Assembly: GCA_020849855.1 (NCBI GenBank) | Contig: JADZFO010000025.1 | Span: forward strand, 35,612 to 99,611 | DNA: 64,000 nucleotides | From: a bacterium | GTDB taxonomy: Bacteria > 4484-113 > JAFGCY01 | Direction: 5' to 3' | Part shown: piece by piece, positions 18,001 through 24,000 of the stretch | How positions within the stretch are numbered: the first letter of the stretch is position 1 | Layout: the number at the start of each line of letters is the position of its first letter | Position numbers: made by a program

Positions 18001-21000
18001 TGCTGGCGGGACAGGCCTGGCATCCTAGCTCGCCTGGCGCAGGCCGCTGATGCCCGGGCCGAGCAGCACTGCGCTGCGGCCGTACTTGTCCCGCAGGCGG
18101 TCCAGCGCGCCGAAAAGGCGCTCGTCCTTCTGCCGCGCCGCCCCGGCGAAGAGGGCCAGCTGCTGGCTGCCGGCGCTGAAGCGGCTGAAGCGCAGACCCA
18201 GATGCCGCACCCGCAGACGCCGGCTGCAGAGGCTGCCAAAGAGCTCCAGCAGGGCCGGGAAGGCCTCGGCCTCGTTGTCGAGGGGCTCATCAAAGGCCTG
18301 CACCTGGCTTAGGGTCTTGAAATCGCTGTAGCGGACCTGCAGGGTGGCGCGGGATGCCCGCAGCCCGGCCTGTCGCAGGCGGCGGCAGGCCTTCTCGCAG
18401 AGCTCCCAGAGCTGGCCGCGCAGAAGCTGCGGGTCGATCTGGTCACGCTCAAAGGTCAGCTCGTGGCCGATGCTGCGTGCCTCGGGCCGCTGCTCGCCGC
18501 TGGCCTGGGGGTCAAGGTTCACCGGCAGGTGGCCCTGCAGGGCGTCGACGATCTGCAGCAGGCCGTTGCCGAAGTGCTGGCGCACAAGCGCGCGCGGCAG
18601 GCCAAGGAGCTGGCCGACGCTTTCCACCCCGCGGTCGCGCAGGCGCTGGCCGGTCACCTCGCCAATCCCGCTGACTGCCTCGACCGGCAGTGGCGCAAGG
18701 TAGTCCTGCACCTGCTCCGGCCGCAGGTAAAAGACCCCGTCGGGCTTGGCCGAGCGGCTGGCCAGCTTGGCCAGCAGGGGGCTGGGGGCAATGCCGATCG
18801 ACAGCTTCAGGCCGATCTCGCGGCGCACCCGCTCGCGCAGGTGCTGCGCGAAGCGCTCCGGCCCGCCGTGCTCGCGCTCCAGCCAGGCAGAGCAGCCGCA
18901 GAGGTTCAGCTCGAACTCGTCGAAGCTCTTTGACTTGAAAAGCGGCACCTCAGCCGCGAGGATGTCCCGCACGCGGCGGCTGTAGAGGCCATAGCTGCCG
19001 TGCAGGCCCTCGTGCAGGAAGATGGCGCGCGGCGCCAGGCGGTAAGCCTCGCCCATCGGCATGGCGCTGTGCACCCCCAGGCGCCGGGCCTCGTAGCTGC
19101 AGGAAGACACGATGCCCCGCGCGTCCGGCCGCCCGCCGATGATCACCGGCTGGCCCCGCAGCTCCGGCCGGTGCAGCCTCTCCACTTCCACAAAGAAGCA
19201 GTCCAGGTCAGCGAGGAAGAACAGCGACGAATAGCTAAACATATGTAGATACTAACATGCGTATAGCATTTTTGCAAGAAATGACTGCGGGGAGCCGATA
19301 GCCCCGCAGTGCTGATTAACAAAAGTGAGCCACTTTCAAAAGATTACTGGCTGATAGAACAGCTTCCGCGAGTACTCAATGCCGCTGCTGTTACGCGTGA
19401 GGTAGGCCTGACCGTCCAGCGTCATGTGCATTTCCAGCGTATAGCTGCCGACGCCCCACCAAGCGGCGAACTGGCTCATCAGCAGTTGCCAGGTCGCTCC
19501 GCCGTCCGAAGAGCTTAGGAGCTGGGTGTGGCCCTTGGCGCCGCCTTCCATGTTGCCTTCAGGCTTGTAGCCAATCATGTAGGCCGTGCCATCGTTCAGA
19601 CGCAGCATGCTGCTGGAGCGGAAAACACTGTCTGCGGGCGTTGCCCCGCCAACGTAGTACATCTCGTATAGCACTGAGCCATCCGGGCTGAGACAGAGAT
19701 TGTAAAGCGGGTCAAGCTGGCTGCGGCCAATCATCAGGTAGTTCAGGCCGGGCTCGCAGCGCCACCACTGATTGCTCTGCGGATAGATCAACTGGTCCGG
19801 CTGGGCAGTGGCGATGAAGGCAGAGCCGCTCCAGCGGAAGTAGACCGTCGCCCCCGCAATGCTGCCGCGGGCAAAGACCGTGCCATTGCCGGGCAGAAGC
19901 TCAAGGTTCCCGTCGGCAAGGCTGTGAAACCCAAGCCAGTCCGTTCCACCAAGCGCCGGGTCATCGCTGCAATAGGCCAGCCATGGCGTCCCTTCACCGC
20001 CGGCAACAAACAGCATGCCGCCTCCGCGGACAACTCCGCGCAGCGGGTAACTGTAGAATCCAGGCGCAGGATCCGGGTCAAGTGCAGTTTGAATGCTGGT
20101 CTCACGCGCGTTCCAGGTCAGGCCGCCGTCATAGCTGACTCCTGCAGTACCCTGGATGCCAAAGCCTGCGCCATAACTGGTGTACCACATCTGATCCGGC
20201 CAGATTGAGATATACAGCGCGTTGTAGTTGATTCCGTTGCCGCCCTGAATGCGGCTGACGTAGTTCCAGCTCGCGCCGCCGTCAGTGGTATGGAACAGAT
20301 CGGCATAGCAGTCCCAGTTGCTGCTGTCCTTCACCACGCCATAACCCTCCAGGGCATTGAACCAGGTTGTCTGATGGAAGCCTGTCGCCTTCACATCACC
20401 AGGCAGGGTTAGCTCGGGATAAGCGGTATAGCCGTCACTGGGCAGGAGCCCGCCGGGCAGCAGGTCAAAGTAGATCGTGTTGCTGCCAGCCTCGCGCGCA
20501 TATAAACCGGCGCCGTCGTCATAATACATGTCACGTTCGGCATAGAGGCTGAGCTCAGTGGTATCGCCACCTGCGCTGTCCTCAAAGCCGGCGAAAGCCG
20601 TGTTTGAAACTGTGTCGTGGGTGGTGAAGATCACTGTCCGGGTGCCCTCGTCTTCCGGTCCGGTCCAGGTTCCCTGGTAGCTGTAGTGGGTCCAGCCGCC
20701 CTCCCAGGTATCGGTCCCGCCAGCAACCTCCCCTTCCCGCACGTCATAGACGCTCAAGGGCAGACTGCTGTCGATTCCAACCAGGTAGGGATCGGCCTGG
20801 GTGCCACTGCCGCCGAGTGCGCCAGTCAGACTGAGCTGCACACCGCGTGTGATGTCAAACCAGATGCTGCCGCCCTTGCCGTTCAGCTGGGCGCTGAGCA
20901 TGAACTTGCCCCAGTTCTTCACATCTGGACGAAGTGCGATTCTGGCCCAGGTCGGGCTGCTTACCGTGGCCACATCCGGACTGATGCTCCAGACCAGTGC

Positions 21001-24000
21001 CGGATCCGCCGTGACATCAAGCTCGCCGTCCATGACCCTGACCGCAACGTCATCGTTGAAATGCGCGGCATACCAGAGGTCGGTGTTTAGGTAGGGGTCA
21101 GTCTCACTCCCGCTGCCGCTGATGATTCCATAATAAGAGCTGGCACTCAGGGTCAGACCCTCCAGTGGCGTTTCCACGAACTCATCGGCATACTTGCTTG
21201 GAGTGCCCTCGCCGCTGCCATCGCTGGGCCGGACCCACAGGTAGGCCGGAACCGCCCCACTTAGCTGATACTGGAAACGCAGGCGCTCCTGGAGCGCATT
21301 GCCCAGTGCTGCGCCGAAGGCGACCTCGCCCAGCGGACTGAGGCTGCTGGTCTGGGTGTTGCCGGGTTTGTCATCAACCGAATCCGCGCCGTAAACACGA
21401 TAGCTGCTTACCATCTGACCATAGTTAAGGCCAATTGGCGTCAGATCGGCAACCGTGATTTGTCCGTTGCCATCGCCATCAACAATGGACAGCATGTTGG
21501 CGCGTCCAGCGAGATTGGTGGGAGCTGCCTTGCGGAAGTGGATGCCGATCTGCGTCAGGTCACTGACCGCCACCCTGCCGTCCTGGTTATAGTCGCCTTG
21601 CAGCGCGTAGTCCCATTCCAGTGTTTGCGCTGCGGAGTTCCAAAGGGCCAGCGAGGCCGAACGGTCAGAACCGGGCACGCTGGAAGCGGCCTTGAGAGAC
21701 CGCTGCTGGGGGCTCGGCGTTGCAGCGAAGCGAATCGTCAGCAGCGCGGTGTCTCCGCTGAAGGGACAGTCGCTCAGCGCAGTCCCAAGCAGCGTCTGCC
21801 CCAGGTGCAGCTCGCCAGGCCTGCCGGTGTCAAATTGCAGCAGCTCAAGGCGTTCCTCAGGGCTGCCAAGTCCAGGCCCGAAACTGGCATCCAGCGGAGT
21901 CAACAGGTCCGGGTCGTAGTCTACGCTGGCATAGACCGCGCGCAGATGCCTGGCCCCACGCAGCTCAAGGCTCAGCATCACTTCGCCTCTGTTGGTAGTA
22001 AGTTGCTGCTGGAGCTGTCCCGGGTCACCGGCGCAGGCGGAGCGAAGCAGCCGCGAATAAACATAGCTTGCAGGCCGCCCTGGCTCACTGTCCGTGGAGG
22101 AGCCGCAGGCTGCCAGACCTGCTGACAAAAGCAGGAGCGGGACGAACAAGCGGGAACCGACTGCGAGATGGGACTTACTCTCTCTACACATGGCATCCCC
22201 CGGCACAGCAGCGGCTGTGAATATATATAAATATCATCGCTTTTGTCGTTTTCTTTCAGAAACTGTGCAACAGATCTAAAGAGAATGCATCTTAAGCTCA
22301 CTTGCCAATGGGTTTCATATAATCCTCGCGATTGAAAGTTACCCTGCATCGTGCAGCCAGGAGAGGGTCATGGCATCTCGGCAAACGCAGCTGTTCGCTA
22401 TCCTGTTAAGCATTAGCCTCGTGCCTCAACTTGCCGGCGCCAGCTTTGATACTGATGCCGCACTTACGGCCCTGCCCTACCTTGCCGCCGATCCGGGGCC
22501 GGCCCGGGCACAGCAAGACAGCGACGGCTTTAGCCTTGGCAACCAGATGCTCAGCCTGAGCTGGAGCACCGCCGGCGGACGCTTCAGCACTGCAGGGCTG
22601 GAATGCGCAGCCGGCGCAGGCGCGCTGCAGCTTGACCCGAGCCCCTTTGTGATCAGCCTCGGCGACGGCAGCTCTGTTTCCGGCGCTGAGATGGAGATCA
22701 TTTCCGGCCCGGAGATCAGCGAGGTACAAACCCAGGCGGACAGCGCCTGTCTGGCCCGGCGCCTGCCCGGCCGGCAGATCAGCCTTGGTCTGCGCAGCCG
22801 GGACGGGCGGATTGAGGCGCTGTGGCGCGCGATCCTGCTTGACGGCAGCAACTATGTCCGCTGCGAGCTGGAGCTGCAGCTGAATTCCGCGCTGGAGATT
22901 ACTGACGTCAGCCTGCAGCGTGGCAGCGGGCCCGAGCTGCACAGCGCCGGCAGCGCCCAGGGTGTGCCGGCGGTCTCAGGCAACTGCTTCATGAACATCG
23001 AGCACCCCAGCGCCGAAAACTCCGCCGGCGTGCCCTGGACGGCCGTCGGCGAATGGACCCCGGCGCAGATGAGCTGGCCCGAGCAGCATCTGCAAAGCTG
23101 GGACCTGGGTGGTCTGGTCAGCGCGCCGGGCGAGTATGAACTGCTGTTCCTATACAGCAGCGGCGGCTATCGCCTTGAGGTGAGTCGCGCAGCGCTGCTG
23201 CAGAAGGGCCGCGAGCTGGCCAGCGATGAGCACTTCGGCGCCACCGGCATCATGCACATCAACAACAGCTACCGCTTTAGCATCGACGCCGCTGCGCTGC
23301 AGCCCGGCCAGCCCGTTGAGCTGCAGGCGATGCTCCGCGCCGACGGCGGCCTTGACTCCAGCGGGCAGATCTTCCTGCGCCGCCTGGACGGCGAGCCGCG
23401 CCTGGATTGTCATCTGGCCGTGGGCCAGCAGCTTGAAGCCAGCAGCAGCCTGAAGCTGAGCAGTGTGATCGGCGCCGCGCCGGCCGGCCAGCTGCGGCGG
23501 GCCTACAGCTTCTATCTGGAGCGCGAGCGGGCGCACCCCTACCGGCCTTTCCTGCACTACAACTCCTGGTACGACATTGGCTACTTCAGCAAGTACAGCG
23601 AGCAGGACGTGCTGGACACGATGGAGCTCTACCGCCGGGAGCTGGTGGAGAAGCGCGGTGTGCCCTTTGAGTCCCTGCTGCTGGATGACGGCTGGGATGA
23701 CTATGACAGTCTGTGGGACTTCCATTCCGGCTTCCCAAACGGATTCACGCCGCTGGCCAGGAAGAGTGCGGCCTATGGCGGCGGGATCGGCGTCTGGCTC
23801 AGCCCCTGGGGCGGATACGGCGAGCCGCGGGAACGCCGCCTGAAGGCCAGCGCCGCGGGGGGCTACGAGACCAACGAAGGCGGCTTCGCGCTGTCGGGAC
23901 CGAAGTATTACGCCCGCTTCAGCGAGATCTGCCAGCAGATGGTGCGCGAGTACAACGTCAACATGTTCAAGTTCGACGGCCTGGGCCAGGGCACCAGCCG

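Follow-up and report, generated by a model that had tools for sequence, protein, structure and literature searches.

A predicted lipoprotein with cohesin-like and dockerin-like domains and its paralogue family in the candidate phylum UBP7

The open reading frame (ORF) analyzed here is located at 19336..22206 on the minus strand of a 64,000-nucleotide stretch of DNA (assembly GCA_020849855.1, contig JADZFO010000025.1, positions 35,612 to 99,611), which is referred to as the window. The host is an uncultured bacterium of the candidate phylum UBP7. The encoded protein, named A, has a length of 956 amino acids (aa) when counted from a GTG start. Its domain architecture as a whole was predicted with high confidence. 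A lipoprotein signal would be followed by a cohesin fold, a beta-hairpin, a two-loop Ca2+-binding dockerin, a small beta domain, a region of about 250 aa and a non-catalytic Asp-box propeller. The following features were assigned:

19336..22206, minus strand: whole ORF A, 956 aa from GTG, 951 aa from the ATG at 22191
22105..22191, minus strand: predicted lipoprotein signal peptide, MCRESKSHLAVGSRLFVPLLLLSAG-LAAC, with the lipobox L-A-A-C at C34, as read from the sequence
21712..22059, minus strand: predicted cohesin-fold beta-sandwich, about aa 50-165, with the family motif L-R-A-(V/L)-Y-x-x-(V/L)-x-Y-D
21412..21651, minus strand: beta-hairpin (aa 186-199, L-x-W motif) and dockerin (aa 204-265)
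21559-21594, minus strand: Ca loop 1 of the dockerin, aa 205-216, D205-YNQDGRVAVS-D216
21445-21480, minus strand: Ca loop 2 of the dockerin, aa 243-254, D243-GDGNGQITVA-D254
21172..21411, minus strand: small beta domain behind the dockerin, aa 266-345, about 80 residues, SYRVYG ... LWVRPSDG ... EGTPS
20407..21171, minus strand: middle region, aa 346-600, with two G-S-G-(S/T)-x-x-D-P-Y-L motifs and no assigned fold
19339..20406, minus strand: C-terminal Asp-box (BNR) beta-propeller-like domain, aa 601-956
20266-20289, 20113-20136 and 19489-19512, minus strand: canonical Asp boxes, [ST]xDGGxxW

The whole protein gave no match to the Protein Data Bank (PDB) with phmmer and none in the NCBIfam search. 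A profile of the family modules matched the solved dockerin of Clostridium thermocellum Cel9D (4fl4_A) with an E-value of 1.7e-5 at profile positions 17-73, covering both segments. The next matches were the dockerins of CelD (4cj0, 1clc), Xyn10B and Cel48, including 2ccl_B and 2y3n_B, and all of them ranked ahead of calmodulins. Both EF-hand-type loops of A fit the pattern D-x-[DN]-x-[DN]-G-x5-D and are each followed by DLT(Q/P)IG. The consensus over 104 modules was LxWxYxNxGDYDQNGxVxxSDLTPxG…DGDxNGxIxxxDITPIG…GY. With Pfam Dockerin_1, only 3 of the 43 family members are recognized at E<=1e-4. Judged by its sequence, the module of A is a true but divergent homologue of the type I-like dockerins, and it is predicted to be Ca2+-dependent.

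An AlphaFold2 model of aa 36-345, calculated from a 30-sequence alignment, reached a mean predicted local distance difference test (pLDDT) score of 83.3. The dockerin helices were placed at model residues 179-188, 197-207 and 217-225 (span 179-225) and the strands of the post-dockerin domain at residues 233-305. The hairpin and the small beta domain both had a pLDDT above 90.

In a preliminary description of the sequence, the module had been called N-terminal and collinear with segments of two further proteins of the window, B and C:

46780..51003, minus strand: paralogue B, module type as in C, then multiple PKD domains and PPC
50957..53149, minus strand: paralogue C, lipoprotein signal, short helical N-region, dockerin module with an insert of 31-34 aa, then PKD and PPC

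The collinearity was borne out by BLASTP, with E-values of 2e-12 for C and 3e-14 for B. An alignment confined to the generic Ca loops would have refuted the preliminary description, but it was found to extend beyond them, since outside the 24 loop residues A is identical to B at 24 and to C at 19 of 54 positions, and the flanks are conserved among the three proteins. Beyond the loops, all three have an L-x-W strand ahead of the module, the motif DLTxIGxxFR behind loop 1 and (S/G)YR(V/I)Y behind loop 2. A hidden Markov model (HMM) built from external homologues only recognized A (1.5e-46), C (4.6e-20) and B (2.2e-17). On the six-frame translation of the window it found nothing besides these three, so that exactly three copies of the module are present in the 64 kb. 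The module of A is compact, and those of B and C carry an insert of approximately 31-34 aa between the two loops. As to its position, the module is present in A but begins only at about aa 186, behind the signal peptide and the cohesin fold, and not at the N-terminus. Common to A, B and C are the dockerin and its flanking strands only. The post-dockerin beta domain is kept in external homologues (HMM positions 90-144 match A), and it was not recognized in B and C by the external HMM.

For B and C, sorting by the type IX secretion system was considered and rejected; the TIGR04183 matches were weak and overlapped the PPC domain, and this sorting is not applicable to A. Two PKD-rich proteins without the dockerin module, one of them with eight PKD domains, are encoded at 28619-31003 and 33456-35399 on the plus strand of the window, and PKD arrays are thus not restricted to the module family.

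The search for a cohesin-like partner proposed in the preliminary description led to A itself, where a predicted cohesin fold lies immediately upstream of the dockerin. It comprises the approximately 115 residues that separate the lipobox from the dockerin, and its pattern …LRAVYASVDYDP…GELHLGQ…FSGDTALLTIRFAA recurs in approximately half of the family. The strands of the cohesin region are located at model residues 29-127. When the model of aa 36-345 was searched against the PDB with Foldseek, nearly all of the top 50 matches were type I or type II cohesins with a probability of 1.00. The best match was 4u3s_A (E 2.5e-4, probability 1.00), with a root-mean-square deviation (rmsd) of 3.4 Å over 120 columns. 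Other cohesin matches were 3ghp, 6kgc, 5nrm, 2b59, 1anu and 1ohz_A, and the compact cohesin alignments showed an rmsd of 3.2-4.7 Å over 105-124 columns. A profile of 22 cohesin-like segments of the family matched just four PDB sequences, all of them cohesins, with non-significant E-values of 0.34-0.7. Taken together, the segment profile, the AlphaFold2 model and the Foldseek search indicate that the domain ahead of the dockerin of A is a cohesin fold, as modelled.

At the related loci, 28 of 29 ORF segments with a cohesin-like domain also bear the dockerin module. Within the window, the cohesin occurs in A only. In the regions flanking the 47 related loci, no separate scaffoldin with multiple cohesins was seen. 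One family member (L040, 5368-7386, plus strand) carries a second cohesin-like domain (aa 368-483) downstream of the dockerin, which was the sole case of two such domains seen.

The N-terminus of A fits the signal peptidase II pattern, with a positive n-region, a hydrophobic h-region and a lipobox of the form [LVI][ASTVI][GAS]C (MCRESKSHLAVGSRLFVPLLLLSAG-LAAC34). A is predicted to be lipidated and exposed at the surface. In the family, lipoprotein signals were identified in at least 31 of 43 members by pattern and in about 37 of 43 when approximately 6 more are counted by eye. The ATG at 22191, preceded at about 5 nt by a Shine-Dalgarno-like GGGGGA motif, is the likelier true start of A. In the public NCBI annotation (P0001, hypothetical protein IT575_06175), the protein begins at M77 and has 880 aa, which cuts off the signal peptide and the first cohesin strands (window 21976-22206, minus strand). 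The present analysis corrects this start site, which drops the signal peptide.

In a scan of GTDB species genomes, the module family was found at 47 loci with at least 65 module ORF segments. Of the 47 loci, 45 come from genomes under the labels UBP7, 'Planctomycetales bacterium' or unclassified 'bacterium', where there are several loci to a genome, and the remaining two from one Armatimonadia and one Patescibacteria metagenome-assembled genome (MAG). The complete genome CP060262.1 contains 6 loci, and two MAGs contain about 9 or more each. Searches with the whole protein A and the module alignment yielded approximately 38 metagenome proteins with the module. Module genes often stand in tandem arrays, with three in a row at loci L001 and L032 and two at L012, L019, L030 and L043.

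The preliminary description had suggested a modular family in which one module is fused to different C-terminal domains, and this agrees with the 47 loci and with the C-terminal domains tabulated across 43 members. These domains are diverse and mostly of a non-catalytic binding type, with PKD present in 21 of 43; PQQ_2, ACSF4, CGLA and SBBP propellers, fn3, Ig, CarboxypepD_reg, PPC and cytochrome c7 were also found. By the distance between lipobox and module, the proteins divide into two classes: in the short one (65-115 aa), to which B and C belong, this stretch is helical, and in the long one (138-200 aa), to which A belongs, it holds the cohesin fold. The full cassette of cohesin, hairpin, dockerin and beta domain is found in about half of the members, A among them; the rest, including B and C, are without cohesin. 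The protein IT575_01645 (P0008), encoded in the same MAG as the window, combines a short-type module with fn3 and a multihaem cytochrome c7-like C-terminus containing many CxxCH motifs, which hints at extracellular electron-transfer proteins among the possible cargoes of the family. UBP7 genomes have been described to contain about 2 glycoside hydrolase genes on average (PMC9765126), so that the module system is not a cellulosome.

An assembly system of the cohesin-dockerin type had been proposed in the preliminary description. Of this proposal, the dockerin and the presence of a cohesin partner held, with the difference that the partner lies inside the same protein and not in a separate scaffoldin; binding between the two is putative. 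In the mechanism put forward here, A would be exported by Sec and then lipidated, resulting in a lipid-anchored envelope protein. Its dockerin would bind Ca2+ and dock onto a cohesin of the family. This docking may take place in cis, on the cohesin of the same protein (a closed state), or in trans, on that of another member in a head-to-tail or lateral arrangement. B, C and other members with a dockerin only would plug into A and other members with a cohesin. The outcome would be mixed complexes at the cell envelope, in which differently armed lipid-anchored binding proteins are gathered. That the function is cohesin-dockerin binding, with self- or hetero-association clustering lipid-anchored binding proteins, is the most likely but still tentative reading, whose chances we regard as close to even.

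Several results weigh against it. Pfam Cohesin (PF00963) gave no match to A at E<=10, and the cohesin-like domain is poorly conserved, with a mean column identity of 29% and no invariant column. The isolated module of A scored 18.5 bits against Pfam Dockerin_1 (PF00404; E 0.0024), which is below the cutoff of 22.9. The predicted template modelling score of the aa 36-345 model was only 0.58, so that cohesin and dockerin are not shown docked. The strong conservation of DLTPIG could be due to packing on the flanking hairpin and beta domain instead of a shared partner. As each protein of the family is already predicted to be anchored by a lipid, docking is not needed for attachment to the cell. 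For the C-terminal 612 aa, a single-sequence AlphaFold2 model reached a pLDDT of 33.4, so the propeller fold is not confirmed by the model.

The main rival explanation is a purely structural cassette, in which the EF-hand pair would be a Ca2+-stabilised spacer and the cohesin fold a generic beta-sandwich stalk, together holding out the propeller. The weak conservation of the cohesin-like domain, its lack of significant sequence matches to cohesins, the lipid anchor of each paralogue and the absence of a multi-cohesin scaffoldin from the flanks of the 47 loci would all fit such a stalk. Most non-cellulosomal cohesins and dockerins are not known to have a demonstrated partner, which points in the same direction. 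However, a co-evolving interaction pair would be expected to show such a fusion of cohesin and dockerin, which was found in 28 of 29 cases, and also the very strong conservation of the dockerin helices seen over the 104 modules. Moreover, nearly all top structural matches were true cohesins and not other beta-sandwiches. The structural explanation is considered somewhat unlikely.

The C-terminal half of A consists of the middle region and the propeller-like domain. For the middle region, no internal repeat was detected by BLASTP self-comparison and no match in Pfam, and three close homologues only were found. At least three Asp boxes had been noted before in the C-terminal half, and these were confirmed as TTDGGASW (aa 640), SYDGGLTW (aa 691) and SSDGGATW (aa 899), located in the C-terminal third. 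Three boxes compare with 0.004 expected, and 0 of 20,000 residue shuffles reached this number. In the family alignment, five Asp-box positions are present, three of which are canonical in A and two degenerate (at about aa 745 and 838). An exhaustive HMMER search with the C-terminal 612 aa identified 13 relatives, and a word-indexed homologue search with the same sequence identified nothing beyond A itself. Three of the 13 are close (38-46% identity) and span the middle region and the propeller. In the other ten, the match is confined to aa ~610-920 of A; they have in common a conserved Asp-box region of approximately 330 aa, and several of them are lipoproteins. A metagenome protein of 489 aa (P0049) combines a canonical Pfam Dockerin_1 (E 4.5e-10) with the propeller family of A, its N-terminal region being otherwise unlike that of A. 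This independent fusion indicates that the combination of dockerin and propeller arose more than once.

All Pfam matches of A itself were below the gathering score (BNR 25.6 bits with a threshold of 27, BNR_2 E 0.16, Sortilin-Vps10 E 0.44), and its relatives gave sub-threshold matches to BNR, Sortilin-Vps10 and Ycf48. The profile of the propeller family matched mostly Asp-box propellers in the PDB, with Ycf48 first (8e-5), followed by sialidases, the GH74 xyloglucanase, the dispase autolysis-inducing protein (DAIP) and sortilin. The matches to sialidases and GH74 (E 2e-4 to 3e-4) would fit an enzyme, in which case A would be a glycosidase tethered to the surface, like the classical fusions of a dockerin and an enzyme, and the divergent neighbouring gene at 22370..24790 does encode a hexosaminidase-associated domain. 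Against this stands that the alignment of the top match Ycf48, the only one displayed, runs through short Asp-box motifs alone. The whole protein contains no FRIP motif and no [FYW]R[IVL]P or R[IVL]P, as in the signature of the GH33 sialidases, and the BNR_2 match is insignificant. In addition, the related proteins with the ~330-aa region match non-enzymatic propellers of the Ycf48 and sortilin type equally well, and glycoside hydrolases are very scarce in UBP7 genomes. The reading as a sialidase or another glycoside hydrolase is improbable and was rejected, since the matches arise mainly via the Asp-box motif and FRIP is missing. The C-terminal domain of A is predicted to be a non-catalytic Asp-box beta-propeller, which would be the ligand-binding end of the protein.

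This domain resembles the non-catalytic Asp-box propellers Ycf48/HCF136, sortilin Vps10 and DAIP in its repeated S-x-D-G-G-x-T-W boxes. The ~330-aa region is shared with related proteins, several of them lipoproteins, and the best PDB profile match, Ycf48, is itself a lipoprotein. The similarity of A to Ycf48, sortilin and DAIP is, however, limited to the Asp-box motifs, with Pfam matches below the gathering score.

Two further features flank the gene:

22220..22249, minus strand: sigma-70-like promoter match, ACGACA, 18 nt spacer, TATATT, just 5' of the start of A
19275..19310, minus strand: terminator-like hairpin 26 nt past the stop codon of A, 9-bp G+C-rich stem and 9-nt loop, then CAUUUCUUG

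The promoter match is of weak consensus, and 1 such site was found compared to 0.8 expected by chance. The free energy of the hairpin is -16.3 kcal/mol (z -2.5). It was overlooked by the terminator scan because its loop of 9 nt exceeds the limit of 8 nt. By these signals, A would be a stand-alone, monocistronic gene. It is located 24.5 kb from the operon of B, C and two genes resembling the protective antigen (PA) of anthrax, which together with its own promoter-like site and terminator hairpin agrees with the earlier statement that A is unlinked to that operon.

A is situated between a divergent gene and an ImuB-like gene. The divergent gene (22370-24790, plus strand) encodes a secreted protein of 806 aa without a Pfam family. 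For residues 225-336 of this protein, similarity was found to the C-terminal domain of a beta-N-acetylhexosaminidase (8pxu, E 9e-11), and a DDGWDD motif, typical of TIM-barrel glycosidases, is also present. Downstream of A (12427-19242, minus strand) are genes for an ImuB/DinB-like Y-family polymerase (18025-19242) and a DnaE2-like polymerase (12427-15927). The ORF of 498 aa between them encodes a bacterial Ig domain (Big_7), which is unusual inside a mutagenesis cassette.

The two PA-like proteins are encoded at 53149-56178 and 56181-59216 on the minus strand, with C and B directly downstream on the same strand. Query residues 155-500 could be aligned (E 1.6e-10) to PA63 of anthrax, to CdtB and to iota Ib, a stretch that takes in domain 1' and a large part of domain 2, which forms the pore. 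A lipoprotein-like signal is present in each of the two PA-like proteins, and where PA has its PA20 domain, at least the first of them carries bacterial TSP3 repeats. At none of the 47 related loci was a PA-like homologue found within a distance of 6 kb. The complete UBP7 genome CP060262.1 contains an orthologous pair of C and B (L039, 1596902-1609225) without PA-like genes upstream. At this position, a homologue of the window gene 41177-43402 (741 aa, no Pfam family, 52-72% identity) was found in divergent orientation. The PA-like pair is thus a variable insertion beside a conserved C and B pair, and the PA linkage is not conserved even for B and C. No cohesin-like domain was detectable in the PA-like proteins, and domain searches of A, B and C revealed no PA-binding, LF/EF-type, ADP-ribosyltransferase or toxin adaptor domain. 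With the enzymatic components of binary toxins (LF/EF N-domain, C2I/Ia adaptor), the family shares only the general idea of a common N-terminal adaptor and the proximity of B and C to PA-like genes. Unlike them, its members are lipoproteins without homology to PA-binding domains, A is unlinked, and the linkage is not conserved in relatives.

The preliminary description had considered A a possible further client of the PA-like pore, and the dockerin module common to A, B and C would then recruit all three to it; despite the adjacent position of B and C and the genuine similarity of the proteins at 53149..59216 to PA63, CdtB and Ib, this is highly improbable and not supported, given the distance of 24.5 kb and the own signals of A, the 0 of 47 loci with linkage, the different gene upstream of the L039 pair, the lack of a cohesin-like domain in the PA-like proteins and of an LF/EF-type or ADP-ribosyltransferase adaptor, and the poor fit between threading through a pore and a module that adjoins a lipid-anchored N-terminus.

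Among known systems, the non-cellulosomal cohesin and dockerin proteins are the closest in kind. Such modules, including proteins with both of them, have already been catalogued (Peer, Smith, Bayer, Lamed and Borovok, 2009, FEMS Microbiol Lett 291:1, as cited in PMC13487519). The family of A resembles them in the absence of a cellulose-degrading context, in the mostly non-catalytic parent proteins, in the occurrence of both modules in one polypeptide and in the intact duplication of the Ca2+-loop of the dockerin. Archaeoglobus fulgidus proteins with both modules also belong to this kind. Unlike the catalogued proteins, the family of A has a fixed N-terminal cassette directly behind the lipoprotein signal. 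This cassette is present in many paralogues per genome and almost exclusively in UBP7, 'Planctomycetales bacterium' and 'bacterium' genomes. Its dockerin has an own signature, GDYNQDG..V.DLTPIG, and mostly escapes Pfam Dockerin_1.

The cellulosomal type I and type II systems (C. thermocellum CipA/SdbA, Acetivibrio cellulolyticus ScaA/ScaB; 4fl4, 3kcp, 4u3s, 1ohz) are similar in that the N-terminal fold of A is, by its model, that of a cohesin and the module profile matches the Cel9D, CelD and Xyn10B dockerins. As in the type II X-Doc, a beta 'X-like' domain adjoins the dockerin, but in A it follows the dockerin instead of preceding it. In contrast to cellulosomes, no tandem-cohesin scaffoldin (flanks of the 47 loci) and no glycoside hydrolase cargoes were seen. 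The anchor of the A family is an N-terminal lipid and not SLH or sortase, and cohesin and dockerin are combined in one chain. The low number of glycoside hydrolase genes in the host genomes, about 2 each (PMC9765126), is a further difference to cellulosomal hosts.

Literature searches on UBP7 with cohesin or dockerin revealed no description of the family. The kind of system, a non-cellulosomal cohesin and dockerin protein, is known; new are the lipoprotein cassette, the signature that escapes Pfam, the expansion of paralogues in a lineage poor in glycoside hydrolases and the lack of a scaffoldin in the flanks of the loci.

In a more far-reaching and doubtful reading, the cassette would be the connector of a phylum-wide, lipid-anchored and non-cellulolytic 'cellulosome-like' surface interactome, with dozens of paralogues daisy-chained head to tail, forming a programmable adhesive or electron-transfer layer in UBP7. 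Each cohesin may bind the dockerin of the next protein, dockerin-only members may be the chain ends, and PKD arrays, propellers, Ig/fn3 domains and multihaem cytochromes may be the arms. More remotely still, such lipoproteins may be carried across the outer membrane by the PA-like beta-barrel proteins beside B and C. Unless such a daisy-chain network at the surface proves real, no new principle is involved.

Cohesin-dockerin pairs are the best-studied high-affinity protein connectors of bacteria, and the knowledge of them comes almost entirely from cellulosomes. The catalogued non-cellulosomal cohesins and dockerins include many to which no function has been assigned, and the family of A is a compact and testable case. 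The analysis also separates A from the neighbouring PA-like, toxin-type locus. A is predicted to be a lipid-anchored envelope protein of a family that probably self-assembles on the cell surface, without a link to cellulose breakdown or to the PA-like genes. If the modules bind each other, this would provide new orthogonal connector pairs for protein engineering, would explain the frequent co-occurrence of cohesin and dockerin outside cellulosomes and would reveal the organisation of the cell surface in an uncultured phylum.

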